A stretch of 64,000 bases of DNA from a virus. Its lineage: Duplodnaviria > Caudoviricetes. The notes under the pieces are model-generated. The model was not told the DNA's origin. It worked only from the letters and a program-made list of their open reading frames with translations, and did not search any database. Shown piece after piece: positions 20,209 through 58,528 of the stretch. The number at the start of each line of letters is the position of its first letter. The stretch's first letter is position 1. The position numbers and the translations under genes are program-made. The stretch spans positions 936 through 64,935 of IMG/VR virus record IMGVR_UViG_3300042465_006702; one strand, given 5' to 3'.

Positions 20209-20240
20209 TAAATATACGGAAAATTATCCAATTTGCCAAG
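20209..20240 (-). promoter_or_regulatory. Bacteroidota sigma70-type promoter, overlapping a TATTTATA motif
   Basis: CTTG-N20-TATATTTA. Confidence 0.55.
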
Positions 20241-37330: not shown

Positions 37331-38177
37331 ATTCTTTTATTAATTTATCCACCACTTGAACCTGTGTGTAATTGTTTATAACTTTTTGCATCCCATTATA
37401 TGCAATTCTTTCTCTTTCTAATTCGTTTTCATTATAATAGTTTATTTTCTCAATACAATCGAACATATCGTTGTACAAAACTATTTCTTCACCTTCTACG
37501 AACAATTCATTTAATTTTGCTTCTTCCGGCAAACGGTCTGTTATAACCAATTTACCACATGCCATTCCTTCAAATAATCTTCTCGTTACCTCACCATATC
37601 TACTATTTTGAATTACCAGTAAACCACTATTCAAAAATTCCGTATGCTCTTTTGCATCCATTCCATTACGATTTCCAATAACTCCTTCTGCCCAATTTGT
37701 AAGATAATCTAAAAATTGTGAATTACCCGGTCCTCTACTCGTAACTCCAACATATTTTGGTTCTACATTCATTGGGAATTGAACTGCGGTATCTGCCCAA
37801 TGTGTTATCCATTCTGCATTTATTCCTCTTCTTTTGTATTCTTCACAAGCATTTGCTGCGGGTGTGATTGTGTAATGAAATCTATTTGCTTTTGGATAAT
37901 TTATTTCAAAATTTTGTGGGTCATCTCCACTCTCTTGTATCCAAAATGCCGGAACTAAATCTTTATTCAAATATTCCGAATCAAATCTACCCCAATCCAT
38001 AAACAATACAATATCAGTTTGTGGTTTAGAATCTATCCAATTTTTTAAATCAGTATCATTTGTTTTTATTATATCAACTTGCCAATCTCTTTTTTTAAAT
38101 TCATTTATCAAAGACATTGGTGTAGACCATTGTTCTCCATCTTTGTAATCGTATATGAATGTTATTTTATTTTGCAT
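37290..38177 (-). CDS. glycosyltransferase (GT-B, CgeB-like)
   Basis: DDPQ, RRLFEGMACGKLVITD, ERERIA..G. Confidence 0.8.
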   Translation of the reverse strand: MQNKITFIYDYKDGEQWSTPMSLINEFKKRDWQVDIIKTNDTDLKNWIDSKPQTDIVLFMDWGRFDSEYLNKDLVPAFWIQESGDDPQNFEINYPKANRFHYTITPAANACEEYKRRGINAEWITHWADTAVQFPMNVEPKYVGVTSRGPGNSQFLDYLTNWAEGVIGNRNGMDAKEHTEFLNSGLLVIQNSRYGEVTRRLFEGMACGKLVITDRLPEEAKLNELFVEGEEIVLYNDMFDCIEKINYYNENELERERIAYNGMQKVINNYTQVQVVDKLIKEYESFNNRSSGSIG

Positions 38178-38826
38178 ATTCTTCTCTTTTGAAATTTATT
38201 TCATAGTGATTTATATCCTTTACATCATATGGAGAAAATGGATTAAACTCTTTACCACTTTGTATATATTTAGTTTCTGCAGCAGCTCTATTTAACTTTA
38301 GACCTTCTAAATTTATACTTTTTATATAATTTCCCTTACCCCACCAAAAATTACCAGAATATAATTTACAATTTCCAACATAACTATATAAAACACCATA
38401 TGTATTAAATTCTGTTTTTTCAAATATTTTAAATACATTTTTTACTTTCTCTATATTAAAATAATTCATCAATCCTCTCCATGATTTTATGTTTTGATAT
38501 AACGAATCATGTTGTTTGGATGCACCCTTTGTGTGAAAGTAAAAAATATAATCATCATCTAAAAAATTATTTTTATCTTCTTCTATTAAATCCAAAGTTG
38601 TAAATTCATTTCCTTTGCAACGAATATCTCTAATTTTATAATTTGCTTTATTAAAAGCATAAATTTTTTCAATTACATTTTTTGAAGATATGTTTTCATT
38701 GGCTATTGAAATTCCAATATTTAACTTAAATGGAAAATCAAAATGTTTTTGTATTAAACCAATTTGTTCATCTATAATAGATTCAACACCTTCAATTGCG
38801 TATATGTGATAATAAACGTGTACCAT
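38167..38826 (-). CDS. glycan-biosynthesis protein (HTKG/SGNFWW family)
   Basis: EFTTL, YFHTKG, WR..M, YSGNFWW. Confidence 0.6.
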   Translation of the reverse strand: MVHVYYHIYAIEGVESIIDEQIGLIQKHFDFPFKLNIGISIANENISSKNVIEKIYAFNKANYKIRDIRCKGNEFTTLDLIEEDKNNFLDDDYIFYFHTKGASKQHDSLYQNIKSWRGLMNYFNIEKVKNVFKIFEKTEFNTYGVLYSYVGNCKLYSGNFWWGKGNYIKSINLEGLKLNRAAAETKYIQSGKEFNPFSPYDVKDINHYEINFKREEYAK

Positions 38827-39452
38827 TATAAAGTATCGTAATAATTGTTTTGTTTTTCTTGTCTATCTATCGTTTTGGGATGTCGTATACAATAAACTTC
38901 TTCTGCTGGAAAAGATGTGTAGTTTTGAAATCCAACAATTCTTTCGTGCACCTTTCCACTCCATCCAATTTTGTTGTGGTCATTTTTATATAAACGGGTT
39001 TGAACATCTGGAAAATTTACCCAGCCCTTTTCGTTTACATTCCATCCCCACTTTTGAATGTGAGCTTCTGTCAATCCTTCGACTGTGTTGATACGTGGGA
39101 CTACGATAAGGTCTTTATCCGTATTGTTATCTAAAATGTCTTCCAAATTTACAATAAGATTTGGGTCTAAATACTCATCTGCATCTAATTGAAATATCCA
39201 CTCACCTTTACATTGTGAGTTTAGTAGATTTTTCCATTGTGCAAAATCGTTATCAAATTCCGATTCTATTAAGGTTATTTTATCGGCGTTTGCTTGGAGT
39301 TCCAAATACTCCACCATTTCGGTAGGTGATTTTGGTGTATCTAAAAGTACAACTATTTCTGAATTTTCACCTTTGTAGTTTAATAGTTGTGTAACTAATC
39401 TTATAATTTCTTCGTGTTCATTACAAGCCGTTATTGCGTAACTTAATTTCAT
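38826..39452 (-). CDS. GT2 glycosyltransferase
   Basis: WIFQLDADE, VPRIN, FPD.Q.R, VHE. Confidence 0.85.
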   Translation of the reverse strand: MKLSYAITACNEHEEIIRLVTQLLNYKGENSEIVVLLDTPKSPTEMVEYLELQANADKITLIESEFDNDFAQWKNLLNSQCKGEWIFQLDADEYLDPNLIVNLEDILDNNTDKDLIVVPRINTVEGLTEAHIQKWGWNVNEKGWVNFPDVQTRLYKNDHNKIGWSGKVHERIVGFQNYTSFPAEEVYCIRHPKTIDRQEKQNNYYDTL

Positions 39453-40426: not shown

Positions 40427-40900
40427 TTATACATTTCTTTTTTGTGATTTCGTATCTATTCCGATTACATTTTTATTTTTTGGAGTAATTTCGTTTACAT
40501 CCATAGTTAATTCAATCACTTTTTTTAATCCGGTTATTTTATATGTTCTGTAAGAATCATTTGTAATTCCTGGCATTTTACTTATTGTTTTTTCGTAAAT
40601 TTGTTTTGCATTTCCTCTCATTTGTAATCGTTCAGTTTCCTCATTTACAAATTTACCAAAAAATCGTTTAATCAAATTTGGATTTACATTTGATACTTTT
40701 ATACAATGGATTATATCTTTAGCTCTTGATACAAAAAGTGTAAAAACAATTGGAGCGGTTGTTTCCGTAAACCTTCCTTTATCTCCATCCACATATTCAT
40801 ATTCTTTTATAAGATAGAATTTACCCCTAGTCATTTTATTAGGAGCAATGTTATTTCTATCATCTACAAATTTACGATATATTGGATTAAAATTGCTCAT
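40427..40900 (-). CDS. hypothetical protein (weak resemblance to gp2 DNA end protector)
   Basis: GKFYLI..Y...PIVF...YRTY; weak similarity only. Confidence 0.4.
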   Translation of the reverse strand: MSNFNPIYRKFVDDRNNIAPNKMTRGKFYLIKEYEYVDGDKGRFTETTAPIVFTLFVSRAKDIIHCIKVSNVNPNLIKRFFGKFVNEETERLQMRGNAKQIYEKTISKMPGITNDSYRTYKITGLKKVIELTMDVNEITPKNKNVIGIDTKSQKRNV

Positions 40901-42168
40901 TATTTATTTAACATTTTTAATTTAGGTAATTGTAATTGTTGGAACTTTGGTTGTAGTTTTGTATAAATACCATACTTGTCCAAAATACCATCAAACAATT
41001 TTGTCATTTTTTCTAAACCAAAATTTTGTTTATTCTGCTTACCCAATTGGAATGATGCCGTTTTGTATTTATCATAGTTTTTATAAACATCTTTTATACT
41101 CTGTAATGCTTTAGAAATGTTTACATTAAACCATTGTGATTCTTTTAATAAGAATTGGTCGGCTGCAGATTCATGTACATTTTTCAACTCACCCTCCAAC
41201 AATACTGCTCCTTCTTTTAAGAAATCCAAATGCCCACTCCAATTAGATACAATTACGGGTTTACCTGTCAAACTGAATTCTAAAAGCGGTCTACCAAACC
41301 CTTCACCTTTTGTGAAGTTTAACATTACTTTTACTTTTGGATGTTCATACAATCCATTTAATTCGGATGGATTCATATCACCATGTATCAAATATACAGG
41401 AACTTTACCATAATCTTTAGCTAAAGCATGTCTTATTTTTGAAACAGTTGCTTCTCTATCCAAAACGCTAAATGTTGCGGATGATGTTTTTAGTACCAAA
41501 GCTGGTTTAACTTTTTCATCTCTAAATGCCATTGCGAATGTTTTAATCATCATACCAACATTCTTTCTATCTTCACCTTCATCACCCTTCAACCAATGTC
41601 CTACAAATAGGAAAGCAAAATCTTCTTTAACTTCATCTAATACATTAATTGTTGCAACTTCATTCGTTCCGAAATCGTTCTCATTAAATCCCTCAAAAAG
41701 TATTTCTACGGGTTTTTCAATTTTATGTTGCTTTATTAATTGTCCAGTTTGTTGATTTGCTTCGTTATAAACGGTTCCAACTAAACTCTTTTTAGCATGT
41801 TCGGATGGTACTATAATTAAGTCCATTCTATTACAACCATGTATCCAATCTAATGCACATGCGGTTGTTTCAATTCCTGCGGTAATTCCAATGTTGTAAT
41901 GTCCAATCTGTTGGAATTCGTTAGGAACGGTAACTTGCATATAAATGTCTGGCTTTTGTTCAATTTTTGGATTAATATTATCTACAATCCATTTATGAAA
42001 TTCGTTATTATAATTAAGTGCATCCATCGGAGTATTACCCCAACGAGTACTGATAATTTTAATATCAAACTTATCTAACTTATAAAGAGAGTGTAATAAA
42101 TCTCTTGCGTGGTCACCATATCCACTTCTCGTTGCTACTGGTGCCTGAAATACTAATGTTGGTTTCAT
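40900..42168 (-). CDS. GT4 glycosyltransferase
   Basis: TRSGYG, IVPSEH, DRKNV, GEGFGRPLLE, WSGHLDF. Confidence 0.88.
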   Translation of the reverse strand: MKPTLVFQAPVATRSGYGDHARDLLHSLYKLDKFDIKIISTRWGNTPMDALNYNNEFHKWIVDNINPKIEQKPDIYMQVTVPNEFQQIGHYNIGITAGIETTACALDWIHGCNRMDLIIVPSEHAKKSLVGTVYNEANQQTGQLIKQHKIEKPVEILFEGFNENDFGTNEVATINVLDEVKEDFAFLFVGHWLKGDEGEDRKNVGMMIKTFAMAFRDEKVKPALVLKTSSATFSVLDREATVSKIRHALAKDYGKVPVYLIHGDMNPSELNGLYEHPKVKVMLNFTKGEGFGRPLLEFSLTGKPVIVSNWSGHLDFLKEGAVLLEGELKNVHESAADQFLLKESQWFNVNISKALQSIKDVYKNYDKYKTASFQLGKQNKQNFGLEKMTKLFDGILDKYGIYTKLQPKFQQLQLPKLKMLNK

Positions 42169-43538
42169 ATTGTAACTAATTGATATTTTTTAATAGGTTT
42201 CCAATTTTTAAATGCTCCTTCCATACCATCGGCTAAAGATTGGCACATATATTCTCTACTTAAATTTCCATCTCCTAACATCCACTTTCTACCTTTTAAT
42301 CCTGCTGCTTTTCTTTCTTCTCTACCCATATCATACCATTCTCTAATTAATGGTGTTACATCTATAAAATCAACTCTATCATCAAAGATATATGGAGTAG
42401 GTACTGAACCCGTTGTTGAACGAACTGGCCAAATTGGTTTAACCCATTCACCACATTTTGTTTTTCCATATTGTTTTTTATCATGTAAAGAACCAATTTT
42501 TATATAATCATCTGCGGTTAGGTATTTACCACCTATTTCGAATCCACATTGGTCTTGCATACCACCTGTTACATTTACAATGATTGGAGTTCCAGCCATT
42601 ACTGACTCTGCTGTTGCTAATCCAAATCCTTCATTAGATGCTAAATTGATTGTAACATCTGCTAAATTGTAAAGGTAATTTAATTCCGTTTCAGTATATC
42701 TGTTTGGTGCAAAAATAACTTTTGAATCTGGCATTAAATCCAATGCAACTTTAGGTAAATCCGTACCATTTTCATCTACCGGTGTTGTATGCATAACCAT
42801 ACAAACCTTATCCCATTTATCTTTAGGCAATCCTTTACGGAACTCATCGAATGCTAACATAGCATCAATTGGTTGTTTTCTACGAATATTACGGTTTGAC
42901 CAATAAAGAACAAATTCATATTCTTTATCGCCAAATAAAGATTTTTTAAAATCTTGTGGAACTTCCACAGGTTTGTAATCTTCGGAATTGATACCATGTG
43001 GAACATAACTAACTTGCCAATCTTTTAATGTATTCCAATGTGGTTCTTTATCCCATGCGCCAACTCTTTTAACAATACCATAAGTTTGTTTTGAGATACA
43101 TCCCAACCAATCACAACTTTCATAGTAATCTCTATTGTATTTTGGGTCTGGCAAATCATCCCAAATGTGATAAAAGAATAAAGGTACTGATTGGCGGATT
43201 TCATGTGCCATTTCATATAACCAAATCCAATAACGTGGGTCAGTAAAATGAAGAATCGCATCAGGTTTTTCAATCATAAGTAGTTGTCTGATTGCATCTG
43301 GATTTCCATATCCATCAAACGGATAAATTTTTACAGATGCATCTGCAACCCCCGTTCTTTTACGAATATCTTCATTTAAATCCATAGCCTGTCCGGCTTC
43401 CGGATGTTTAATAGCCGCACCTAATTGGACCCAATCGTATTTATCAACCGTTCCTAATACTAATTGTTTGGAAACATTTGCGATACCACTACTCATTCGT
43501 AGGTCATCGGAAAGTAACAGAATTTTCTTTTTAGCCAT
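42165..43538 (-). CDS. GT4 glycosyltransferase
   Basis: YVPHGI, NRNIRRK, NEGFGLATAES, TGGMQDQ. Confidence 0.88.
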   Translation of the reverse strand: MAKKKILLLSDDLRMSSGIANVSKQLVLGTVDKYDWVQLGAAIKHPEAGQAMDLNEDIRKRTGVADASVKIYPFDGYGNPDAIRQLLMIEKPDAILHFTDPRYWIWLYEMAHEIRQSVPLFFYHIWDDLPDPKYNRDYYESCDWLGCISKQTYGIVKRVGAWDKEPHWNTLKDWQVSYVPHGINSEDYKPVEVPQDFKKSLFGDKEYEFVLYWSNRNIRRKQPIDAMLAFDEFRKGLPKDKWDKVCMVMHTTPVDENGTDLPKVALDLMPDSKVIFAPNRYTETELNYLYNLADVTINLASNEGFGLATAESVMAGTPIIVNVTGGMQDQCGFEIGGKYLTADDYIKIGSLHDKKQYGKTKCGEWVKPIWPVRSTTGSVPTPYIFDDRVDFIDVTPLIREWYDMGREERKAAGLKGRKWMLGDGNLSREYMCQSLADGMEGAFKNWKPIKKYQLVTI

Positions 43539-43567: not shown

Positions 43568-44437
43568 TTAATTTTTTCCATCACAATGTGTTCCATAAAA
43601 TTCACACCATCCACACAATTTGGATGGTTTTTTATGGTATTGTGTTTCTAATTTATAATTTCCTGTATTATCGAATACACTTTCAACAAAAGCCTTAAAA
43701 CCATTCCATGCTTTGTTTATAGATGGTTTTCCATTTGCAGGAATATGTTTACTGATTCGATGTGTTGGTATATCTTCTCTGATTGTAACTTTTCTTTTTA
43801 GGATGATAAATTCAACATCTATCATATCTTCAGAAACTCCTATCATTTCTGCATAAAACTTTTTGTAAAGAAGTATTTGTGAATTTTTAACAGGATCGGA
43901 CTTTTGATACTTACTCCAACCCGATGTTGATGTTTTGAAATCTATAATACGATACTTGCCATTAAACTTATCTCTGATAATTAAATCAATAAACCCCATA
44001 AAGTTTACACCTTCTGCAATCTTTGTATTTATTGGTTGCTCTATCGCCACCAATTCATCATGCTTTAGTGAAAAGAATTTATTGAAATTTTTTGATTTTT
44101 GAAACCAATCTAATAAAACTTGTCCATCATAAAGAAATTCAATCATTTCTTCTTTGGTACAAATTGTTTGATTACCGATTTCTCCACCTGTTTCCTTTAA
44201 AAAAGTATCTCTCATTCTTTCTTTGAGAAACTCTTTCAAATCAATCATTTTATCCGCCTGCGATTTCGATATTCTTAAACACTTATCTAAATAATGTTGT
44301 AGTGTTTCATGCATTGCTGTTCCAAAAACGGAATGTATATTAGATGTAGATTGTGATAACCCATCTATATATGCTAATTTGTATTGTTGTGGACATGTAC
44401 TCCACATACTATATTGTGAAAACGATACTCTTGCCAT
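43568..44437 (-). CDS. PD-(D/E)XK Cas4/RecB-like nuclease with Fe-S staple
   Basis: SFS..CP, GTAMH, GFID, IIDFKT, CGWC..C. Confidence 0.85.
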   Translation of the reverse strand: MARVSFSQYSMWSTCPQQYKLAYIDGLSQSTSNIHSVFGTAMHETLQHYLDKCLRISKSQADKMIDLKEFLKERMRDTFLKETGGEIGNQTICTKEEMIEFLYDGQVLLDWFQKSKNFNKFFSLKHDELVAIEQPINTKIAEGVNFMGFIDLIIRDKFNGKYRIIDFKTSTSGWSKYQKSDPVKNSQILLYKKFYAEMIGVSEDMIDVEFIILKRKVTIREDIPTHRISKHIPANGKPSINKAWNGFKAFVESVFDNTGNYKLETQYHKKPSKLCGWCEFYGTHCDGKN

Positions 44438-44441
44438 AGAA

Positions 44442-44473
44442 CTAATATAACTAAATTTTTTGGATTTATCAAA
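44442..44473 (-). promoter_or_regulatory. Bacteroidota sigma70-type promoter
   Basis: TTTG-N20-TATATTAG. Confidence 0.6.
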
Positions 44474-44921
44474 TTTTTAATTTCAATTTAGTTATTTGTT
44501 TTTTATCAGTTCCATATTTTTCGCAAATGTATTTAATATTCTCTCTTCCTTCTCTTGTTGAATATAAAACCTCAATATATTCTAATGCTTCCTTTTCGGA
44601 ACATTGAAAATCCGTCTTAATCAAATCAATTAGGAATTCTTCGTATTTATCTGCCGATTTTCCCTTTGTATATTTTAAAAAATATTTTCCTTTTGGAATA
44701 ACACTAATATACAACTTATACATTTCTTTTGGTTGTAGTGTTTGTGTAAGTGGGAGTAAGGTAGCAATAAGTTCAACCCATTCCGGCTTCATTGATAGGA
44801 ATCGATTAATCATAAAATTACTCCAAGACTTTAAATCTTCTTCTGATAATTTATCAAAATACTTTGGGTCTTGTTCGGTAGTTATTGCATTTAAATGGTC
44901 AAATAACTTTTTAGCTGCCAT
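44469..44921 (-). CDS. clamp loader small subunit (gp62-like)
   Basis: LFDHLNAI, FMINRFLS, IPKGKYFLKY; close to the gp44-like gene. Confidence 0.75.
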   Translation of the reverse strand: MAAKKLFDHLNAITTEQDPKYFDKLSEEDLKSWSNFMINRFLSMKPEWVELIATLLPLTQTLQPKEMYKLYISVIPKGKYFLKYTKGKSADKYEEFLIDLIKTDFQCSEKEALEYIEVLYSTREGRENIKYICEKYGTDKKQITKLKLKI

Positions 44922-45160
44922 TATTCTATAATTTTTGAATCTTTTAATTCATCTGGTAGTAAATCGTGTAAAGGTTTACCACATTGGGTACATAGATACA
45001 TTTCTATTGGTAATATACTATCTTTTGCTCCACCAGTAACTAATCTAGAAACTTTTCTAAATCTGTAACCTGGCATAAAAGTATTATTTCCACATTCACA
45101 TAACATTTCTCTTGCATCGGTTAATTTAAAACCCATTGGCATTTGTGGTTGTTGTTCCAT
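44921..45160 (-). CDS. Zn-ribbon protein
   Basis: CECG...CTQCG. Confidence 0.65.
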   Translation of the reverse strand: MEQQPQMPMGFKLTDAREMLCECGNNTFMPGYRFRKVSRLVTGGAKDSILPIEMYLCTQCGKPLHDLLPDELKDSKIIE

Positions 45161-46107
45161 TATTTTATAATATTTAAAATTTGTATAATTGTGCTCATAA
45201 ACACTATCTCTTTATCTACTACCAACGCATCTTTGGATAACCCATCTGCGATAGTAAGTATAACATTTGCTGTATTCCCAGCTGCATAATCATCCACTTT
45301 ATCGTATAACATTGAATACATTTCTGAATAATCATTTAAATGGTTATCAGCCACTGCTTGTCTAATTGATAGAAATAAATTTCTTTTATCATTTGATGAT
45401 TTTAATAAATCAATCAATTTTGTTTGAAAATTACTTTCAACCATAACTTTATGGTCTACTTTCAATTCACCCTTTGCGGATTGTAATTGACAAGTATTAA
45501 GTATTCTTCTAATATCTGGATAATAAGAATTTATAATATCCGCCATATTTTTTGGTTCATACTTAATCTTTTCAGCATCTAATATCTTTGCTACCTGAAC
45601 TGCTACATCCTTTTTAGTAGGAGGTGTGATTGCGAAAGATTGACATCTACTTTGGATAGGGTCAATGATTTTCTCAATGTAATTACAGGTTAAGATAAAT
45701 CTACAATGCTTACTGAATGTTTCCATTAAGTTTCTCAAAATCGCTTGTGCTCCCGGTGTCATATAATCAAACTCATCTAATATGATTACTTTGAAACCTG
45801 CAAATCCAACCGATGATGCAAAGTTCTTAACTTTTGTTCTTACGGTGTCCACATTGTTTTCATCCGATGCGTTGATAATCATATAATCACATTTGATTGT
45901 GTTTACGATTAACTTTGCAAGTGTGGTCTTACCAGTACCTGCTTTTCCGTATAACAACAAATGTGGTATATCGTTTGCATCTAAATATTGCTGTATTGTT
46001 TCTTTGATGGTTTCATTACCAACATAGTCAGCAAGAGTTTGTGGGCGGTATTTCTCCACCCACAAACTATGTTCTCTTTTGTTTATATCGTTTGCGAAAA
46101 AACTCAT
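45160..46107 (-). CDS. clamp loader AAA+ subunit (gp44/RFC small)
   Basis: WVEKYRP, GKAGTGKT, NASD, DEFD, SRC. Confidence 0.95.
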   Translation of the reverse strand: MSFFANDINKREHSLWVEKYRPQTLADYVGNETIKETIQQYLDANDIPHLLLYGKAGTGKTTLAKLIVNTIKCDYMIINASDENNVDTVRTKVKNFASSVGFAGFKVIILDEFDYMTPGAQAILRNLMETFSKHCRFILTCNYIEKIIDPIQSRCQSFAITPPTKKDVAVQVAKILDAEKIKYEPKNMADIINSYYPDIRRILNTCQLQSAKGELKVDHKVMVESNFQTKLIDLLKSSNDKRNLFLSIRQAVADNHLNDYSEMYSMLYDKVDDYAAGNTANVILTIADGLSKDALVVDKEIVFMSTIIQILNIIK

Positions 46108-46828: not shown

Positions 46829-47542
46829 TTAATTTGAAATTTCTACTAAATAATATTTACATACAAAATCATCAATTTGGAATTCAACATTTGATAAACC
46901 ATCCGTTGAAACTTTCAATTTTGCTGATGTTGCTTCTTTGTTTGCTGTTAAGATTTCTTTTAAATACTTTGCTGAAAAAGAAATTGGTTTAATCTCTTCA
47001 CTAAATCCTTTGCTTGCCGTAAATGTAACTCTGTTTGTGGAGATAGATGAATAACCAATTGCCATTTTCAAATCACCACCTTCGGTAAAGATTGTGAAAG
47101 TGTCTACATCACTCAACGCACCTTTTGCTTTGATGAAACGGTCTACCATTTGAGATGTCATATCAATTGTAATTCCGAAATCAGGCAATGCTTTTAAATC
47201 TGGAACCGGTGGGATAACACCCAAGTCAGCCAATTGATAAGAAGTTTCCGTATCATCTGAACTTAATTTTAGTGTAACCGCTTTATCGCCGGCTTTATCA
47301 ACTTTTAATGCGATATCACTATCCAATACACCAATCATATTTTTCAATAATGATGTTGTGTAAATACCAACATTAAACGGAGTTGATGTAAATGCATTAA
47401 ATTCAACTTCACCTAATAAGGTTTTATCATCAGAAATAAATCTAACTGATAATTTTGTACCTTCTGCGTTCCATGCTACGGACTCAATAAGTCCACCTAA
47501 TGAATACTTTTGAATAAATTTTAATAAATTGTTTTTGTTCAT
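46829..47542 (-). CDS. DNA sliding clamp (gp45/PCNA-like)
   Basis: 237 aa; GIY....L, FSAKYLKEIL..N, C-terminal YYLV; lies between PolB and the clamp loader. Confidence 0.75.
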   Translation of the reverse strand: MNKNNLLKFIQKYSLGGLIESVAWNAEGTKLSVRFISDDKTLLGEVEFNAFTSTPFNVGIYTTSLLKNMIGVLDSDIALKVDKAGDKAVTLKLSSDDTETSYQLADLGVIPPVPDLKALPDFGITIDMTSQMVDRFIKAKGALSDVDTFTIFTEGGDLKMAIGYSSISTNRVTFTASKGFSEEIKPISFSAKYLKEILTANKEATSAKLKVSTDGLSNVEFQIDDFVCKYYLVEISN

Positions 47543-47563: not shown

Positions 47564-47594
47564 CTAATATACGGAAAATTTTTTAAATTTCAAA
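47564..47594 (-). promoter_or_regulatory. Bacteroidota sigma70-type promoter
   Basis: TTTG-N19-TATATTAG. Confidence 0.6.
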
Positions 47595-48329
47595 TTTTTC
47601 TTTTATGTGATTATATAAATTATTTACATATAATTCATTTTCTTTTGGACTTGCGTGTATTTGTGAATCAGGAAAATTTGGATAATCTCCATCGAATCTA
47701 TTTTCATCGGTGTAATCTGTTCCTACAAATGTACCATTCCAAATAAATGGTATTTCTTTTGATTTTAAATAATATGTTATCAATTGATGATTTTTATACC
47801 AATTTATAAAATCTTCTTTATGGTTCAGTGCTTCTACTATATTTGCCCACTTTTTTCTACCTATCATTTCTTCATCAAAATGTCCCCAAGGAATCGGATG
47901 ATATGGTTCTATTCCTCCCGATTCCGTATAGTATTCTCTTCTTTGTGGATATGTATACATTACCAAAACCAAAGATGGTTTTAAATAATCGGTCCATGTT
48001 AATACTGCTCTTGATATATAATCATTACTTCTACCACTTATTCCCAAATTAAGGTCAACTCCATTTGGTATTTTACGAGAAATTAAATGAGGCCAAGTTT
48101 CGTGATTATGAACATTTATACCTTCGGTGTGCGAACAACCTACTGACATTACTCTTATTCCTTTCTTTTTTGGTGAATCGCCTCTAAATCCTAATTCATT
48201 AAATCTATAATAACACCCATCCGAATCGGAACCATTTCCTAAATTTTCTTTATTTTTTCTTTCTTTTATTGACCATTTATAACTGGCAATATCAAATTCG
48301 TCAGGTGTCCAAAATTTTAATACTTCCAT
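47583..48329 (-). CDS. SGNH/GDSL-fold protein between PolB and clamp
   Basis: YRFNELGFRG, VGCSHTEG, TWP, NLGISGRSND, IHAS; start moved to ATG 48329. Confidence 0.72.
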   Translation of the reverse strand: MEVLKFWTPDEFDIASYKWSIKERKNKENLGNGSDSDGCYYRFNELGFRGDSPKKKGIRVMSVGCSHTEGINVHNHETWPHLISRKIPNGVDLNLGISGRSNDYISRAVLTWTDYLKPSLVLVMYTYPQRREYYTESGGIEPYHPIPWGHFDEEMIGRKKWANIVEALNHKEDFINWYKNHQLITYYLKSKEIPFIWNGTFVGTDYTDENRFDGDYPNFPDSQIHASPKENELYVNNLYNHIKEKFEI

Positions 48330-48331
48330 AA

Positions 48332-50887
48332 CTAAAATGCGAAAAACTTTTGTGCTGTTTTTGTTTCTACCGATGCTTTTTCCCACTTCAATGCGTTGTA
48401 AAAATCATCAATCTTATTTTCTAATTCTGCTTTATAAATTTCATCTCTATCAATATAAGTTTCAATGAAGTCCATAACCTCTTTCGGGTCATTGTAATCT
48501 TTGAATGCCAATCCTTCTAGTCCTAATGGGTTTGTTTTAAGATATACCCATTTCACTTTATCTCCATCTCTGATTGGTTCGTGTTTATAAGGACAGTTAA
48601 AGAATTTTAATAATCGGTTGTATGCTATTCCGGCTTTAACGTGTGCAGGTGTTCCCTTTTCGAAATCTGCAATTGCTTTACCTTTTGCCCAACTACCATC
48701 ATCATACTTACTTAATTCTTTGATTGCTCCACCCTTTGCTATTTTGTTTACAGGTAATCCAACCATACTCTTTTTGAATGTCAGTAACGAGTCATCTATG
48801 AATGCGTTATCTTTACCCATTAGAATATCTTTTAGAGTTCTTGCCATAAACTCCTGAAATGCTTTGGGGAATGAACTTCTAACAACGTCCAAACCTTTCA
48901 CATCCAACTTATCACATGGAATACCATTTTTCAAAATCATCCATTGTGCATATCGTTTTTTTGCTACCCAAAATCCTGCTTTACTGATATACTCTTTCTT
49001 AATCTCAAATCTATGCTTCTCTTTTGGAATAAAAAAGAATCGTTCTGCCAACAAATCGTAAAATGAATTTAAAAATGATTGAGTTTCTTCTGCAATTATG
49101 TTCACCTCTTGTGCCATTCTGGTTTCATCAAACTCTTTATAATTTGGATATCTGTGTTTTACCAAAGGTTCTGCCATCATATAGATTGAATCCGTATCAA
49201 TATACACATTGTAATCATCTTTAGTACCCAATTCTTTCCAATATTTGATGTTAGCCATTTCAGCAGTTTTCTTAATAACAGTTTGACCTGTTAGAGTTAC
49301 TGCTTCTGCATTATCAACATCATAAAATCGGAATGCCGGTAAACCTAAAACACCATACATTGAGTTCAGCAGGATTTTTTGTACAAGCTGTCTTTTAGCA
49401 TAAAACTCATATTTTTCAGTATCTCCTTCTTCACCATACTTCTTTTCTAATTTTCTAAACTCAACACGTTTATCAAACCAATCATTTAGAATATCTGCAA
49501 TCAAACCTGGACTATCTTGGTTATATAAGACTCCGTTTGCAGCAACACCCAAATTTCCATCTTTAATTACTTCTTCTAATTCACGCCTATTATATTCGTA
49601 TTGCTCTTCATCCTTACCAATTAAATTATATGTTTTGTCTTCACCCTTAATCCAACTTTCCGCATCCCAATTTTGAATCTTACCTACTTTTGTTTCAGGA
49701 CTGATGTTTAGAGTCATAATGATTGATGGATATAGAGATGTTAAGTCCAAGTCATAAATCCAATCATACTTACCAACGATAGGTTCTTTTACATATGCTC
49801 CGATAAACTTTTCTTCGTTGTTATCTTTAAGAGCTTGCATTCTTTCTTTTCTATCTTTTGGTTTATTGGATGCTACCAATCCTTTCTTTTTAAGATATGC
49901 TAAACATGCACCTTCTAACCACTTTGATGAAAATATGTAATCTTCATACGGAACAAACCCAGCGTGACAAACTGCTCTACATAATTCAATGAACTGAAGT
50001 TTATCATCCATTGCTACAATTAGGTCTACATCGACAATGTTATACTCAATAAATTTTTCTAAATCATTTTCAAATAGGTCATCCAAACTTCCTTCGTATT
50101 CAACCTTACCTCTACCTAATTCTTTAGTAGCGATATAATTTAGTGTATAAGATGATTCTAATGTATATGTGTAAGTTTTATAAAGATTAAGATAATCCAA
50201 AATACTTACTCCACCAAATGACCATTTATCTCTATATGGCGAATAGAAAGTTTGTCCGATTGGGGATAATCTTTTTGCGTGTCCTTCTCCGCATACGTTT
50301 TTAATACGATTGTAAAGGTATGGAATATCAAAAAAGTCTATGTTCCAACCCGTAAGAATAGTCGGGTTAATTTCTTCGTAATAATTAAGAAATGCAAATA
50401 AAAGATTTTTCTCGTTATCAAAAATGTGAACGCTAACTTCTCTGCCATCCTTATTAAATTGTGTGGCATTGTTTTTAACTTTTTTTTCTTTATCTAATAC
50501 AAAAACATCAAACAACTTTGTAGCACTATCTTGTGCTGCAATTGCTGTGATTTCATTTTGTGCTTCTTTTGTGTTTGGTAACCCCGTGTTCATTTCAACC
50601 TCAATATCAAACGTCATTACCCTATGTCCTTTTGATGGTAAATCTTCATTGTATATATCAACTAATACTCTAGTTGTTTCTGGTACATCTGCTTCGAATA
50701 GTTCTTCGGTTTCTTCTTTATCCCACTTTGATATACGAGTAAGTTTATCACCATACATTGAAAGATATTGTCCGTATGGGTCTTTTTTATAGGCATACTT
50801 ACGATATGGAAAGGTTGTATATCCCCTTTCATCATCCCATAAATGCATTAAGTTTTTTGACCTTTCGTAATAAATGTTTTGATACAT
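48332..50887 (-). CDS. family B DNA polymerase (gp43-like)
   Basis: FDIE, GWNIDFFD, YNIVD, DLTSLYPS, KILLNSMYG, YIDTDS, KKRY; tail QKFFAF. Confidence 0.97.
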   Translation of the reverse strand: MYQNIYYERSKNLMHLWDDERGYTTFPYRKYAYKKDPYGQYLSMYGDKLTRISKWDKEETEELFEADVPETTRVLVDIYNEDLPSKGHRVMTFDIEVEMNTGLPNTKEAQNEITAIAAQDSATKLFDVFVLDKEKKVKNNATQFNKDGREVSVHIFDNEKNLLFAFLNYYEEINPTILTGWNIDFFDIPYLYNRIKNVCGEGHAKRLSPIGQTFYSPYRDKWSFGGVSILDYLNLYKTYTYTLESSYTLNYIATKELGRGKVEYEGSLDDLFENDLEKFIEYNIVDVDLIVAMDDKLQFIELCRAVCHAGFVPYEDYIFSSKWLEGACLAYLKKKGLVASNKPKDRKERMQALKDNNEEKFIGAYVKEPIVGKYDWIYDLDLTSLYPSIIMTLNISPETKVGKIQNWDAESWIKGEDKTYNLIGKDEEQYEYNRRELEEVIKDGNLGVAANGVLYNQDSPGLIADILNDWFDKRVEFRKLEKKYGEEGDTEKYEFYAKRQLVQKILLNSMYGVLGLPAFRFYDVDNAEAVTLTGQTVIKKTAEMANIKYWKELGTKDDYNVYIDTDSIYMMAEPLVKHRYPNYKEFDETRMAQEVNIIAEETQSFLNSFYDLLAERFFFIPKEKHRFEIKKEYISKAGFWVAKKRYAQWMILKNGIPCDKLDVKGLDVVRSSFPKAFQEFMARTLKDILMGKDNAFIDDSLLTFKKSMVGLPVNKIAKGGAIKELSKYDDGSWAKGKAIADFEKGTPAHVKAGIAYNRLLKFFNCPYKHEPIRDGDKVKWVYLKTNPLGLEGLAFKDYNDPKEVMDFIETYIDRDEIYKAELENKIDDFYNALKWEKASVETKTAQKFFAF

Positions 50888-51999
50888 TAAGCTCTTAATT
50901 TTTCGTTTAATATTTTAATCATCTTACTATCGTTTTCAGATAGTTCCTTTGCTCTTTCAATTGCTTTTGTTGATAATTCTAATCTATGATTTTCATCATC
51001 TAATATTTTATCAAGCATATCAAACAAATCTTTTTTATATTTAAAGAATAACCCATTCGGGTCTATCTCTTTGTAACAATCTGATTCCTGAAATATCATA
51101 GGAGTTCCATTCATCATACAATCGGTAGCCGCTACACTCCAACCATAATTAGTCTGCCTCATTTGAATTCCAACGGAGCAAGATTGTAACTTTTTATAAT
51201 AATCATGCTTAGCTACTTTTGTATTATCAATCCATCCAAATTCAGGCTTACCATCTAATTGTGGCACCCACACTTTGAAATCTTGTCTACGCTCTCTATA
51301 TTCCTCCATTAATTTAATAAAAGATGGATATCCCTTATATGCGGCTGCTCTATGATTGAATACAATAACCTTTTCTTTTGGTTGTAGTGTTTCTATAATT
51401 TTAGTATCATCTATACCTAAATTCCAAACCACTAATATACTATTTAATTTTTGAATAAACAAATCATTGAACCACAATTTTGCTTCTTCTAAAACTCTAT
51501 CTTTTTGTTCTTGCGTATTTAAAAAGCAAGTATCCATTTGAGATACACCCAATAATTCTATTGGCATCCATCTCCATTTATTTTTTCTATCCTCAGCGTT
51601 ACAACTTTTCATTTCCCACCAATGACAATAACCAATTATTTTGGTATCAAATGAATTTTTATATCTACCAACTTGCGGCCAATCTGGCAAATGTGAATAT
51701 ATTACATCGTAATCCAACGTTTCTAATAACCTATTCATATCAGGTGGATATGTTCTCATTTTTATCATATCACCTGAAAATTCTAATATATGTTGTTTAA
51801 CATTTATCAGATTTAATTTCTTTACCGGTTGCGGTAATATTATATTCCAAAAAAAATCTCCATGTGGTTCTAATGCTTTTATATGATTGTATATGACATC
51901 TACAAAAGAATCCTTTTCAATATTTCCAGAATTAGTAATATTTGGTATTACTAATACTTTTCTAGCGTTTTTATAATCTATGGTTTCCCAAAATGCCAT
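50887..51999 (-). CDS. GT-B glycosyltransferase, candidate DNA-base glycosyltransferase
   Basis: DVIYSHLP, FNHR..YKG, GWSVAATDCMMNGTP; stop overlaps the PolB start codon. Confidence 0.7.
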   Translation of the reverse strand: MAFWETIDYKNARKVLVIPNITNSGNIEKDSFVDVIYNHIKALEPHGDFFWNIILPQPVKKLNLINVKQHILEFSGDMIKMRTYPPDMNRLLETLDYDVIYSHLPDWPQVGRYKNSFDTKIIGYCHWWEMKSCNAEDRKNKWRWMPIELLGVSQMDTCFLNTQEQKDRVLEEAKLWFNDLFIQKLNSILVVWNLGIDDTKIIETLQPKEKVIVFNHRAAAYKGYPSFIKLMEEYRERRQDFKVWVPQLDGKPEFGWIDNTKVAKHDYYKKLQSCSVGIQMRQTNYGWSVAATDCMMNGTPMIFQESDCYKEIDPNGLFFKYKKDLFDMLDKILDDENHRLELSTKAIERAKELSENDSKMIKILNEKLRA

Positions 52000-52000
52000 A

Positions 52001-53227
52001 CTATCTACCTACTTCTTTTAAATAATTATCTTTCATTTGTTCCCAAGTTAAACCAATTGCATTAATGTAAAATAATACCTCTGGTTTAATTTTACCTTCT
52101 TCGTAAAGCTTTTCATATCTTTTAATTGCTTTATCTTTCCACCATTTCATTGTATACGCATTACCTTGTTCAAATTTATCTTTTAAAACTAAATCCGTTT
52201 CTTCAATTTTTGAACAAAGAAACTCATTACCATTTTCATACATTTGTGCAAAATATACACCTCTTTGAAATCCGTGGTCGTATGCATCGCTTTTAATTCC
52301 CAATTCTTTATAAATTGCTTGAATAATTTTTTGTTTAATACCACTAACAGGTCCGTTTCGTTCATACCCCATATTAGCACCATTTCTCTCTCTTTCCTGT
52401 GTTATATGTGTATTATACCATTCTGCTTTATTTTCTTTTAACCATTGATGCCAAGGGTCATATACTTTATCATCCGGCTTTGTTGATATTTTACCTTTAG
52501 ATTCTCCTAATGTTTTAAAATGTGGAATACCATTGTATTGTGAGTGAATACCATAAAGGGATGTTGTACCAACTCCAACTAAAACATTATCATATTTTTG
52601 CTTCCAATAAGCCCTAATTTCGGGACACGTCGCTAATGCTGCTATTAGCTTACCACCCAAAAAGTTATAACCAAATGGCTGCGTTGATACGATTGTTGTA
52701 GCTATTGTAGTGCAATTTAATTTACCTTTTGTAAACTTATCTTCTTTTTGCCAACCAATATATGCATCTCTGACTCCCAAAGATGTAATATCGGAACCCA
52801 AACAAATTTGTCCTAATATTTTTTTACTCGTTCTATCTTTAACATAACACTTTACATTCCGACCAGGATTTGCCTGGAACTCCATAGTATGAATCAATCT
52901 ACGGATTTCAGTCCAACGTGTTGCTTCTTTTGGGTCTTCATCTACAATTTCTACATATGGGTCTAATGATTGTATTTCAGAAATAGTTAGTTCTTTATTC
53001 ATTATATCGGTAGGCTTCCATAGTGAATCATAGTGCTGCTGTAAAACTGGTAATCGTTTCATATTAGAAACTAAATCACTATTCCACTCCATCCACTTTT
53101 TATATAGAGTTTGCTCTTCTACTGACATTGTTTTAAGATAGTCCAAATTTTCAATGAACTTCTGTTTCATAACCTCATAATCAAAGGTTTCCGTATTTGT
53201 TTCTTCGCCTGTATCCCAAAATTTCAT
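52001..53227 (-). CDS. DruA/DUF4338-like protein
   Basis: NPGRN, LGSD..L..RD.YIGW, PFGYNFLGGKL.A, TTSLYG..SQYN, LGESKG; start moved to ATG 53227. Confidence 0.8.
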   Translation of the reverse strand: MKFWDTGEETNTETFDYEVMKQKFIENLDYLKTMSVEEQTLYKKWMEWNSDLVSNMKRLPVLQQHYDSLWKPTDIMNKELTISEIQSLDPYVEIVDEDPKEATRWTEIRRLIHTMEFQANPGRNVKCYVKDRTSKKILGQICLGSDITSLGVRDAYIGWQKEDKFTKGKLNCTTIATTIVSTQPFGYNFLGGKLIAALATCPEIRAYWKQKYDNVLVGVGTTSLYGIHSQYNGIPHFKTLGESKGKISTKPDDKVYDPWHQWLKENKAEWYNTHITQERERNGANMGYERNGPVSGIKQKIIQAIYKELGIKSDAYDHGFQRGVYFAQMYENGNEFLCSKIEETDLVLKDKFEQGNAYTMKWWKDKAIKRYEKLYEEGKIKPEVLFYINAIGLTWEQMKDNYLKEVGR

Positions 53228-53231
53228 ATGT

Positions 53232-53263
53232 TTAATATACGATTTTTTCCGCACATTACCAAA
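53232..53263 (-). promoter_or_regulatory. Bacteroidota sigma70-type promoter
   Basis: TTTG-N20-TATATTAA, ending 4 nt before ATG 53227. Confidence 0.6.
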
Positions 53264-54059
53264 ACTTACTTGCTAATTCAGTTTCGGGTGCTATTGTTAA
53301 ATGATGTTCTATATCTTTATTAAATTCCTTTGCATTTTTTGGATATTCTCTAACTGCATGTTTTAAGGATTTTAAGATTGCTTTCTTCTCCTTTTTATCA
53401 CCTGTAATTACTTGCACATATCTATGCTTCGGTGGTTCTTCCCTTCTCCAAAATTCTTTATATCCTTGCTTTCCAATTTCTCTACGAAGATGTTCTAAAT
53501 TACCACTACCCCACATTGAGAATACTGTCCTACTATGAATCCAATCGTATGGGTTGTTTGATAAAGATATTCCGTAGTTGGGCATTAAAGCAATTTCTGT
53601 GTTCATTCCCTGATATATCCAGTTCGTTGCTTGGTATATTCCACCCAAATGCTCTTGTCCGTTATCTGCGTAGGAAATCAATACCTTAATTGCTTTATCG
53701 TTTTCTCTAAACCATTTGAATGATTGTCCGATTGCATAACTTTCTATGTTAGAACCATATCCATCATCACAATAGAGACGGGTAAGTTCTAATACATTAT
53801 CTTTTGTAAGTAATTCGGAAATAGAATTTGCTGCTCTTGCACCTACTGGAAATCCGTAAACCAAACATCCGATTAACTTTTCGTTATCACCTAATGCGTT
53901 TACTTCATCTGTTCTATAAAATATACCCAAAGAGTATCTACAAGCAGTCCACGCGTGAGTATAGTGTTTTTTAACTATAATCTCTTTTGCAATTGATGGA
54001 CTGATTTCTCTAATCGTAACTCTGGATACATCACAATAATTTTTATTAGCTTCTTTCAT
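53256..54059 (-). CDS. Mom-family (GNAT) DNA adenine-modification enzyme
   Basis: IVKKHY, IGCLVYG.P, LELTRL, N.ES, ISYAD..Q.H.G.IYQATNWIYQG. Confidence 0.82.
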   Translation of the reverse strand: MKEANKNYCDVSRVTIREISPSIAKEIIVKKHYTHAWTACRYSLGIFYRTDEVNALGDNEKLIGCLVYGFPVGARAANSISELLTKDNVLELTRLYCDDGYGSNIESYAIGQSFKWFRENDKAIKVLISYADNGQEHLGGIYQATNWIYQGMNTEIALMPNYGISLSNNPYDWIHSRTVFSMWGSGNLEHLRREIGKQGYKEFWRREEPPKHRYVQVITGDKKEKKAILKSLKHAVREYPKNAKEFNKDIEHHLTIAPETELASKFW

Positions 54060-54243
54060 ATGGCCATTTCAACATGTGAGTCCATGTCTGATTTGTAACT
54101 ATTTTTTTAATATTTGCTGGCGAAACTTTGTGGTTTTGTGCCAATACTTTAACATTACGATGTCCAACTTTCCATAGTTCTCTAATCGTTTCAACTTGCT
54201 TTTCAGTAAGTTTGCTCATTGGATGCGCTTCACCTTTTAACAT
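54046..54243 (-). CDS. stand-alone HTH (HNH-associated DNA-binding domain)
   Basis: GEAHPMSKLTEKQV..IR...LA...VS..I..IV..TW.H; start moved to ATG 54243. Confidence 0.7.
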   Translation of the reverse strand: MLKGEAHPMSKLTEKQVETIRELWKVGHRNVKVLAQNHKVSPANIKKIVTNQTWTHMLKWPYERS

Positions 54244-54247
54244 AATC

Positions 54248-54279
54248 CTAATATACGGAATTTTTTTCACTATAACAAA
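54248..54279 (-). promoter_or_regulatory. Bacteroidota sigma70-type promoter
   Basis: TTTG-N20-TATATTAG, ending 4 nt before ATG 54243. Confidence 0.65.
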
Positions 54280-54834
54280 TCATTTTTTAAATATAAGCAA
54301 AACATCATTTTTTTGATTATGATTACTTTTTGCTCTTAAATCTATTATTTCGTATGGTATATTTAATTTATCAAATTCAACTTTATAATTGTCGATATCC
54401 CATACATCTTCTATAATAATTTTACCATTTGGTTTTAATTTTGAAAACCATTTTTTTACACAATTTATTTGTGATTGTAAAGTATGCGGGCCATCATCTA
54501 TAATATAATCAAATGTTTCATCAAAATATAAATCAACAACATCATTGGAATACGCATCTCCGTAAATGATACCAACATTTTCAATACTATTTACAATATT
54601 TACATACTCATCGGTCATTTCATCTTTATTATCAATTCCAAATATTTTAGAATTAATAAACCAATCTCTCCATAAAATTAAAGAGTCACCTTTGTTAATG
54701 CCTATTTCTAATATATTTAATTTATCATATCTAATCGGTGTAAATTCCGAATTGTACCACTCATCTATATAACAATGGACCGTTCCTTTGTCGGTTGCTT
54801 CTCCCGTACTTTTATAATATTCGGATAAATCCAT
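54280..54834 (-). CDS. class I SAM methyltransferase (sugar O-methyltransferase-like)
   Basis: TDKG..H.Y, ILEIGI..G.S..W, IIDDGPH, IIED. Confidence 0.85.
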   Translation of the reverse strand: MDLSEYYKSTGEATDKGTVHCYIDEWYNSEFTPIRYDKLNILEIGINKGDSLILWRDWFINSKIFGIDNKDEMTDEYVNIVNSIENVGIIYGDAYSNDVVDLYFDETFDYIIDDGPHTLQSQINCVKKWFSKLKPNGKIIIEDVWDIDNYKVEFDKLNIPYEIIDLRAKSNHNQKNDVLLIFKK

Positions 54835-57979: not shown

Positions 57980-58528
57980 TTACGATATATCTCTAACCCA
58001 CACATACCAACTGCTTTTACTAACATTTACTTTATTTTTTCCAAAAAAAGTATCAACGGCCGGTATAACACTTGTTATATAATCTTCGGTATAATCGTGT
58101 CCTGCAATCAATCCAGTTTGTTTTAACTTTGGCAACCAATGTTTTATATCTTCTGTCACTGCGTTGAATGAATGGTCTCCATCTATAAAAACAAAATCTA
58201 AACTATTATCTTCATATAATTTTGAAGCTTCCGTTGAATAATTTTGTATAACCGATATATCCAATTTATCCCAGATAGGTTTCAAATTATGTAAAAAGGC
58301 TTCAGTATAATCTTGTGTTTCATCATTTGGCATATCCCAACAATCAACACAATCCAATTTTATGTTTTTTTGTGAATTTATTATTTCAACCGCAATATAC
58401 GCAGAACTTTTTCCCTGCCCCAATCCAATTTCAACAAAGTGTGAATTTGTTGGAAAGTGGTTTACTGCCATTTCAAATATTTCCTCACAATCAAAACTAA
58501 ACCCATTAGGTAAATCTAAATGTTTCAT
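57980..58528 (-). CDS. class I SAM methyltransferase (Methyltransf_24-like)
   Basis: FVEIG..GKS, VFIDGDHS, WLPKLK..G.IAGHDY. Confidence 0.85.
   Translation of the reverse strand: MKHLDLPNGFSFDCEEIFEMAVNHFPTNSHFVEIGLGQGKSSAYIAVEIINSQKNIKLDCVDCWDMPNDETQDYTEAFLHNLKPIWDKLDISVIQNYSTEASKLYEDNSLDFVFIDGDHSFNAVTEDIKHWLPKLKQTGLIAGHDYTEDYITSVIPAVDTFFGKNKVNVSKSSWYVWVRDIS

Follow-up and report, generated by a model that had tools for sequence, protein, structure and literature searches.

Until recently, Mom was a one-enzyme curiosity of phage Mu. The Mu enzyme is reported to take glycine from Gly-tRNA(Gly) and place it on adenine N6 in double-stranded DNA, the adduct then rearranging to N6-carbamoylmethyl-adenine; R111, S124 and D149 as well as a helix-turn-helix (HTH)-like insertion are described as essential, the R151A variant as having no detectable activity, and a network of >8,000 Mom homologues is presented (Silva et al. 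2026, PMC13219725). Known phage DNA sugars are described as sitting on 5-hydroxymethyl- or 5-hydroxy-pyrimidines from thymidylate-synthase homologues, with D169N carried by the 5-hydroxy-dCMP synthases (Lee et al. 2026, PMC13326640). T4 sliding-clamp ligands are described as having hydrophobic, acidic C-termini (Geiduschek and Kassavetis 2010, PMC2988020), and PF14236/DUF4338, the sequence family of DruA from Druantia type I, has been called a GNAT domain (PMC10853773). Here, a viral cassette was analysed in which a Mom-family GNAT, a DruA/DUF4338-family GNAT (the DruA-like protein) and a glycosyltransferase (GT) are encoded directly upstream of a family B DNA polymerase (PolB). It lies in a stretch of 64,000 nucleotides (the window), positions 936 to 64,935 of IMG/VR record IMGVR_UViG_3300042465_006702, which is nearly the whole of that 64,935-base record.

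We lean, with slightly better than even confidence, towards reading the cassette as a replisome-embedded, clamp-linked DNA-modification module that holds two systems, Mom alone and DruA with the GT. Its genes, like nearly all genes of the AT-rich window (~31% G+C), are on the minus strand. Mom (53256..54059, 267 aa, PF25680) is a predicted aminoacyl-tRNA-dependent DNA adenine modifier. It is followed by the DruA-like protein (52001..53227, 408 aa from ATG 53227, PF14236), for which a Mom-like fold is predicted, by the GT4-like GT-B glycosyltransferase (50887..51999, 370 aa, assigned by fold) and by the T4 gp43-like PolB (48332..50887, 851 aa; PF00136, PF03104; phrog_262, E 2.7e-181). Upstream of Mom, a small basic open reading frame (ORF; 54046..54270, 74 aa from GTG, pI 10.3) encodes a putative HTH protein. 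A reading made from the letters of the window (the sequence-only reading) had described four tightly packed genes running into PolB, with the GT stop overlapping the PolB start at 50887, and the ORFs and their packing were found as claimed. The Mom start and the putative HTH end overlap by 14 nucleotides, one nucleotide separates the DruA-like stop TAG from the GT ATG, and a TAATG at 50887 is common to the GT stop and the PolB start. The genes of the window make up a T4-like myovirus set, including the family B polymerase, clamp, clamp loader, a gp32-like protein, a RecA/UvsX-like protein, a DnaB-like helicase, ribonucleotide reductase (RNR) and PhoH, and the source is an uncultured T4-like aquatic phage.

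Mom, the DruA-like protein and the GT bear the same aromatic end-tag as PolB, and because of this they probably decorate DNA at the replication fork. In the window, the tag is Lys-Phe-Trp at the C-terminus of Mom (53259..53267, protein end ...SKFW), Lys-Phe-Trp-Asp at residues 2-5 of the DruA-like protein (53213..53224, start MKFWD) and Phe-Trp-Glu at residues 3-5 of the GT (51985..51993, start MAFWE). PolB ends in KFFAF, the gp44-like large subunit of the clamp loader (45160..46107) starts MSFFAND, and a 248-aa protein (47583..48329), whose ATG at 48329 directly follows the PolB stop, starts MEVLKFW. FW was found within 7 residues of either end in 5 of the 83 window ORFs, compared with 0.83 expected from composition. 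Among the matches listed, 119/120 GT homologues have FW in their first 6 residues, F3 and W4 being nearly invariant in the GT alignment, and 112/120 DruA-like homologues have an M-x-F-W-type N-terminus. Because of the latter count, and because ~408 aa is the length of most of the 120 DruA-like database homologues listed, ATG 53227 is a more likely start, judged by sequence, than the alternative GTG (52001-53254, 417 aa).

Tags were also counted in distinct proteins of related loci, drawn from 160 IMG/VR loci (80 DruA-anchored and 80 GT-anchored, with 27 contigs common to both and counts given per set). They were present in 55/62 GT, in 7/11 of its 30% identical paralogue GT', in 79/88 DruA, in 7/8 short Mom (QWFG) and in 11/48 proteins of the usual second Mom (Mom'); 48/51 main Mom proteins had a terminal aromatic pair, 80/96 PolB a C-terminal aromatic tail and 49/76 gp44 an N-terminal FF or FW. 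Many of the tag-less counts stem from truncated ORFs or wrongly called starts. The control families gave 0/77 (gp45), 0/47 (gp62), 1/36 (Trx), 0/35 each (HTH, o114 and o79), 0/29 (dUTPase), 0/19 (PhoH) and 0/12 (RNR), unnamed ORFs 9/297, and inserted ORFs directly upstream of the GT 1/37. The residues beside the tag vary (F and W stand at 100% in that tabulation by construction), and in the structure models the tags fall in low-confidence ends of the GT (residues 1-6, with pLDDT, the predicted local distance difference test, <50) and of the DruA-like protein. A conserved hydrophobic and acidic peptide at a free terminus, as in T4-type sliding-clamp clients, was thereby found, controls included.

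By analogy we infer that the tags are clamp-docking peptides. Like the clamp-binding tails described for T4 gp43, gp55 and gp33 (PMC2988020), they are short, hydrophobic and acidic free-end peptides, and they are common to the phage's own PolB and clamp loader; unlike those tails, they stand on predicted base-modifying enzymes and are N-terminal in two of them. The 248-aa protein, with M-x(1-5)-FW in 6/8 distinct homologues and weak GDSL(-lipase)/DUF6071 leads only (Pfam, ESM Atlas), is possibly a further clamp-linked enzyme.

Synteny likewise ties the enzymes to the replisome. In the 80 DruA-anchored loci, the DruA-like gene was always inside the PolB, gp45, gp44 block; GT or GT' adjoined it in 39, stood one ORF away in 2 and elsewhere in 6, and 15 loci were too short to decide GT presence. 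In the 80 GT-anchored loci, the downstream neighbour of the GT was PolB in 64, gp44 in 12 and the locus end in 4, whereas upstream of the GT stood variable ORFs (42 loci), DruA (30) or Mom (1), and 7 loci ended there. The polymerase link that the sequence-only reading had drawn is therefore upheld, with the GT directly upstream of PolB in 64 of 76 loci having a downstream gene and with end-tags common to the enzymes and PolB. DruA was present in 63 of the GT-anchored loci, and the other 17 all end where DruA would lie; at least one Mom was found in 51 and at least two in 37.

Within the PolB/clamp/clamp-loader block the Mom, DruA and GT families change order, copy number and type. Recurring orders were HTH, Mom', Mom, DruA, GT, PolB; Mom, DruA, PolB; Mom, X, GT', DruA, PolB; Mom, X, GT, PolB, (Mom''), gp45, DruA, gp44; and PolB, gp45, DruA, GT, gp44. 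The DruA-GT pair still adjoined when it lay between gp45 and gp44 (L030-L041, L066). Slot X is occupied by GmrSD_N/DUF262 proteins, some of them with HNH, by HNH and Endo VII nucleases, by a GHKL ATPase, by N6/N4 DNA methylases and in one case by a RimK-type ATP-grasp enzyme; DNA methylases and DUF262/HNH-type nucleases enter the same hot spot. GmrSD_N/DUF262 slot genes (L019:7365-8858, L043:7341-8882, L119:4307-6001, L129:1846-3321, L157:4301-6001, L103:4431-5990 and others) encode proteins that resemble modification-dependent restriction enzymes, most of the matches being at or below the Pfam cut-off; the L019 protein also matched PADLOC NsnA (E 4e-12). The window has no slot insert between Mom/DruA and the GT.

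All five near-complete relatives (G001-G005) hold Mom, the DruA-like gene and GT or GT', whereas the arrangement and the presence of a GT at the locus vary. Two Mom matches each were found in G001, G002, G003 and G004, and G005 has two Mom-like ORFs at its locus (L059) and one GT. In G004 (complete), G008 and G009, where Mom seemed missing beside DruA-GT, the two Mom genes are encoded at another place of the same record; G007 (80% complete) has DruA and GT with no Mom match, and G006 (53% complete) has only DruA of the three. On a quick DruA tree (78/80 rows, two rows with a DruA ORF <350 aa being left out), GT-main and GT' interleave among near-identical DruA sequences: GT-main changes 11 times, with at least 5 changes forced by starred branches, and GT' 10 times, with at least 7 forced. 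The label 'no GT' is unreliable on this tree, since four sets of identical rows are split merely by differing locus reach.

The assignment of Mom to the Mom family by the sequence-only reading is secure. The protein matched PF25680 with E 6.8e-42 and 143.9 bits (curated cut-off 27.1), spanning positions 2 to 202 of the 202-position profile, as well as phrog_1384 (E 3e-44), and its closest phage match was the Mom-like protein of Polaribacter phage P12002L (42.5% identity); against the Mu Mom crystal sequence (PDB 8bv8) the E-value was 3.7e-5. Equivalents of Mu Mom H58/Y59, R111, S124, D149 and Y159 are kept in the window Mom and across 15 paralogues from related phages; R94, S107 and D132, which align to the essential R111, S124 and D149, are invariant in these paralogues. 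In contrast to Mu, where the gene stands in the com-mom late operon, the window gene is in a T4-like replisome block, its product carries a C-terminal Phe-Trp tag, and relatives of the phage carry two or three Mom paralogues. Two tandem paralogues with ~45% mutual identity occur in most relatives, and the window has one. Between both Mom genes of L132 lies a RimK-type ATP-grasp ligase (2553-3437, E 1e-48), which could extend an amino-acid adduct.

The DruA-like protein matched PF14236 (E 6.3e-19, 68.7 bits against a cut-off of 27) and the PADLOC DruA model PDLC00002 (E 4.2e-20). Its AlphaFold2 (AF2) model (pLDDT 93.1) has a GNAT core at approximately residues 84-358, and among 48,161 PDB chains the top match in an exhaustive VIA search was Mu Mom (8bv8_B, Z 10.7, root-mean-square deviation 3.4 over 164 residues), followed by other GNATs at Z <=9.4, with FemA at 8.4 and TacT3 at 8.1. 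Foldseek against the PDB returned weak acetyltransferase matches with Mom absent from the list, Mom surfacing only in the VIA search, and neither the protein nor its profile had a meaningful PDB sequence match. The model supports a Mom-shaped GNAT, and a long helical stretch between late core strands (253-309 in the DSSP string) can be read, by the order of secondary-structure elements in the model, as lying near the site of the essential HTH-like insertion of Mu Mom. The proposal that the DUF4338 protein is a second Mom-related enzyme thus stands as to the GNAT core and the best match, and falls short as to profiles, where no relation to Mom was found; at 408 aa with extra helical regions, the protein also differs from Mu Mom in build.

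Its family is the same as that of DruA from Druantia type I. No DruB-E partners, which in Druantia type I share an operon with DruA, were found in the Pfam scans of the window, and PF09369, the marker of the DruE helicase, was present in 0/5 near-complete relatives, in agreement with the sequence-only reading, which had seen no other Dru gene. Unlike its Druantia relative, the DruA-like gene stands by itself in the core of a phage replication module, and its product is terminally tagged; by its sequence it is a DruA-family member and not part of a Druantia system. Homologues numbered 3,388 at E <=0.001 in 90% clusters and 1,015 in 50% representatives. Among isolated phages, lone DruA-like genes occur in Mosig (33.5% identity) and HTVC008M (30.5%), both Pelagibacter phages, as well as in 25 records of Synechococcus phages and one of a cyanophage; DruA-like proteins in six Synechococcus phages are noted in the Phold preprint. 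Among 25 longer homologues scanned, 7 (P0246, P0247, P0252, P0258, P0271, P0285, P0343) had an N-terminal ParB_N domain, 6 of them above the cut-off, and one each was fused to UDG (P0280), DUF3102 (P0262) and a C-terminal GIY-YIG/NUMOD3 nuclease (P0390). Such domain fusions point to DNA as the place of action of the family. At the Mom' position of one relative, a short 242-aa second DruA-family protein is encoded (L023:4462-5190, PF14236 E 2.8e-26), which suggests that the DruA and Mom GNAT families can replace each other there.

The GT belongs, as far as its sequence tells, to a divergent, virus-only GT4-type branch. Its 659 homologues at E <=0.001 and the ESM Atlas, where only GT4 and virus-only clusters were returned and the nearest clusters are all viral, are accompanied by an AF2 model (pLDDT 87.2) of a clear two-Rossmann GT-B, GT4-like fold; no meaningful PDB sequence match was found. 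The top Foldseek match was MshA (E 1.2e-13) and the top VIA matches were sucrose-phosphate synthase and PimB' (Z 24.9, 338 residues) and BshA (24.5). Of the solved phage DNA GTs, the HY126 GT reached Z 18.8 (rank 36) and T4 alpha-GT (1y6f) Z 18.1 (rank 43). Table 1 of PMC13326640 gives BshA 3mbo, MshA 3c4q/3c4v, PimA 2gej, 6kih, 7qsg and 5ze7 as neighbours of the DNA arabinosyl-/glucosyl-transferases of DLP3, RB69 and RL38J1, two of which are marked there as experimentally confirmed. Because BshA, MshA, PimA and sucrose-phosphate synthase are thus top structural matches common to the window GT and to phage DNA GTs, small-molecule and lipid-GT neighbours do not speak against a DNA role, and grouping with protein or lipid GTs does not discriminate.

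The window GT shares with phage DNA GTs (T4 alpha-GT, and the HY126, DLP3 and RB69 arabinosyltransferases, described for 5-hydroxycytosine; PMC13326640) the GT-B fold and a gene position in the replication region, and differs from them in that no hydroxylating-type thymidylate-synthase partner was seen in relatives and no sugar-nucleotide genes travel with it. Among close relatives one type of GT is exchanged for another. T-even phages, too, differ from each other in GT set. The acceptor enzyme was checked in the relatives: ThyA is present in 4/5 near-complete genomes, the motif was read in G001, and there Cys146 and the canonical QRSVDTFLGLPFN motif with D169 and N177 are kept, so that this ThyA resembles an ordinary thymidylate synthase; in G002, ThyX takes the place of ThyA, and the GT is present all the same. 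A hydroxy- or hydroxymethyl-pyrimidine acceptor was therefore rejected for the relatives, and judged from these sequences such a route is unlikely for the GT. With neither known kind of acceptor in place, the DruA-like product, the Mom product or a non-DNA target remain. The sequence-only reading had separated the GT from the large sugar-nucleotide island of the window, and correctly so: SIS_2, a gene of the island, was found in 0/5 relatives searched, four of which carry a GT, and dependence of the GT on the island was rejected.

The favoured reading, a replisome-embedded, clamp-linked module of two systems, may then work as follows. The tags would attach the enzymes to the gp45 sliding clamp in the manner of the T4 gp43, gp55 and gp33 tails, and DNA would therefore be modified at or behind the fork. 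Mom would aminoacylate adenine N6 from a charged tRNA as in Mu, although the group transferred may differ because R151 is replaced. The DruA-like GNAT would acylate a DNA base, and the GT would draw on a nucleotide-sugar of the host to glycosylate, most likely, the product of DruA rather than a hydroxylated pyrimidine. There would in this way be two systems and not one linear pathway: Mom by itself, and DruA with a GT that is optional and swaps fast. A fuller claim makes the DruA-family GNAT another type of DNA base acyl- or aminoacyl-transferase, which would be tethered to the clamp by its Phe-Trp tag and mark freshly synthesised DNA, the tagged GT then glycosylating the adduct; this appears rather unlikely at present.

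How much of the cassette acts on DNA was weighed from several sides. An explanation that we consider unlikely, though with a real chance of being right, is that only Mom modifies DNA, while the DruA-like GNAT and the GT act on other substrates, for instance a protein of the replisome or the host, a tRNA or, like MshA and BshA, a small molecule; their place next to PolB would then reflect no more than a hot spot that is permissive for early/middle genes. The best structural matches of the GT are small-molecule, lipid and glycan GT4 enzymes, but these are also the neighbours of known phage DNA GTs; dozens of protein and small-molecule GNATs match the DruA-like core at Z 8-9.4, but some members of the DruA family carry a fused ParB_N or UDG domain. 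The hot spot takes unrelated genes (homing endonucleases, a GHKL ATPase, an ATP-grasp enzyme) and pelagiphages have the DruA-like gene without Mom or GT. Against a merely permissive site stand the tags, which are common to PolB and the clamp loader, occur in 1/37 slot genes and are near-nil in controls, and the DruA-GT adjacency, which is retained after relocation. That the DruA-like protein is a defence or counter-defence factor, either a Druantia-derived superinfection exclusion or a decoy against host Druantia, seems very improbable. It matches the DruA models of a defence system, and the neighbouring slot of relatives holds GmrSD_N/DUF262-HNH, NsnA-like and other defence-type nucleases; yet the DruB-E partners are missing from the window scans and the DruE marker from the near-complete relatives, the gene is constant in the replication block while the adjoining defence-type genes turn over, and it carries a replisome-type tag.

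The sequence-only reading had joined the genes into one linear pathway, in which Mom and the DruA-like protein acylate a base and the GT glycosylates the acyl group, giving an acyl-plus-glycosyl base. The tight packing of the four genes, the presence of Mom, DruA and GT in all five near-complete relatives and the lack of an evident hydroxy-pyrimidine acceptor in relatives are in its favour, and the Mom product carries an amide, so that an aminoacyl group could, extrapolating from what PMC13219725 describes, carry a hydroxyl. It is nevertheless improbable, and as an obligatory HTH-Mom-DruA-GT pathway it was not sustained: Mom and GT vary independently around a constant DruA, GT types are swapped, and DruA stands alone in two pelagiphages. 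In the GT-anchored loci with an upstream gene, the GT adjoins DruA in 30/73 and Mom in 1/73; the Mom pair lies outside the DruA-GT locus in some genomes, one clade has Mom and DruA without GT, and G007 has DruA and GT with no Mom match.

Other findings weigh against the favoured module of clamp-linked enzymes or against parts of it. For the DruA-like model, Mom is only 1.3 Z units above generic GNATs, the DruA and Mom profiles show no relation (hhalign probability 0.7%), and no sharing of catalytic residues with Mom could be made out. In Mosig and HTVC008M the DruA-like gene occurs without an FW tag, and neither genome holds Mom or a GT of this family. In the window Mom, the Mu-essential R151 is replaced by Gly134 (ADNGQEH against ADERCGR in Mu); among the 15 aligned phage paralogues the position is variable and Arg is conserved in none, whereas all have His137. 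Judged from the alignment, this loss lowers the case for the same chemistry as in Mu and not that for Mom-family membership. The Pfam matches of the GT lie below the curated cut-offs (22.4, 21.8 and 21.7 bits against 26.4, 28.5 and 25; Glycos_transf_1/Glyco_transf_4), many GTs that act on small molecules, lipids or proteins are at least as close to the GT as T4 alpha-GT is, it had no tblastn match among 50,697 phage records, and no longer, fused form of it was found, which is weak evidence. A GT is absent from 18 of the 80 DruA-anchored loci that have at least 2 genes on each side, some of which end short of the place of a GT upstream of PolB, and a well-supported clade (L009-L015, L018) has Mom-DruA-PolB without GT at the hot spot. 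The relatives are all of one phage group or lineage, so that co-occurrence counts are not independent events, and the window's record is a fragment of 34% completeness by CheckV.

In these very abundant uncultured aquatic T4-like phages, Mom-type genes, a Mom-shaped enzyme and a virus-only GT are built into the replication block. The eukaryotic DNA methyltransferase DNMT1 is bound to PCNA, and if the tags are clamp-docking peptides, the cassette would be a phage counterpart of such clamp-coupled DNA modification. If the DruA-like protein is indeed a base acyltransferase, this would be the first function for DUF4338/DruA, with consequences for Druantia type I. Glycosylation of its adduct by the GT would yield an acylated, sugar-bearing base not yet described. 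Such a mark would be widespread, since abundant T4-like phages of marine and fresh waters, pelagiphages and cyanophages among them, have the DruA-like gene in their core. The DNA of these phages may be resistant to restriction enzymes and show odd behaviour in sequencing chemistry. No description of the cassette or the tags was found in the literature searched, subscription journals being mostly outside that search, as were the supplements of PMC13219725; the cassette region had no blastn match among the 50,697 phage records.

In the cassette region, two host-type promoters had been assigned by the sequence-only reading. The sites exist (54278-54250 and 53262-53234) but are 9/12 matches, of which the scanned 11.5 kb holds 46 compared with 60.4 +/- 7.8 in shuffled sequence; being no commoner than chance, both were rejected as promoters. 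The gene called HTH is a real ORF, but no Pfam match was found for its product, and its PHROG matches, to the C-terminal DNA-binding part of phage endonuclease/HTH families, are weak (E 3e-4 to 5e-3). It is kept upstream of Mom genes in relatives and, once, lies directly upstream of DruA without Mom (L056). Methyltransf_24-type S-adenosylmethionine (SAM) methyltransferases (54280-54834 and 57980-58528) flank the Trx-PhoH-RNR genes; the former lies just upstream of the putative HTH gene, at the cassette end, where most relatives have no such gene.

Downstream of PolB and the 248-aa gene lies the gp45-like sliding clamp (46829..47542), which is without a tag and was named from synteny and T4 gene order; this gene beside PolB is kept in relatives. 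The neighbour of the gp44-like gene (44469-44921) matches Phage_clamp_A. Next to the clamp-loader genes and a PD-(D/E)XK nuclease, tandem GT4-like genes were found (40900-43538 and 43568-44437), one of which scores 28.9 bits (cut-off 26) with PF20706, 'GT4 in conflict systems'. Both proteins are without an FW tag, homologues of both recur downstream of the replication block in L059, L063, L078 and L081, and they could be a further nucleic-acid-directed GT pair.

The sugar-nucleotide/glycan island occupies 18893-21258 and 32819-35652, and also 12358-12792, 29225-31691 and 36338-39452. It includes a SIS_2 isomerase, a GHMP kinase, a HAD+nucleotidyltransferase fusion and a PRK/uridine-kinase+aldolase fusion, which we take to resemble a GDP-heptose pathway, together with a cytidylyltransferase, an epimerase/dehydratase, a C-methyltransferase and GT1 and GT2 genes. 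Because of the SIS_2 result in relatives, the island is specific to near kin of the phage. A 1,095-aa TonB-dependent-receptor-like outer-membrane barrel is encoded at 14407-17694 (CarboxypepD_reg + OMP_b-brl_4, E 2e-50). This domain pair is typical of Bacteroidota and, as a Polaribacter phage supplied the best phage match of Mom, the phage may have a host in Bacteroidota. At 19462-20189 and 12053-12361 it encodes proteins for the assembly of iron-sulphur clusters (NifU_N, E 3e-50; Fe-S_biosyn, E 6e-19) as well as a 2x[4Fe-4S] ferredoxin.

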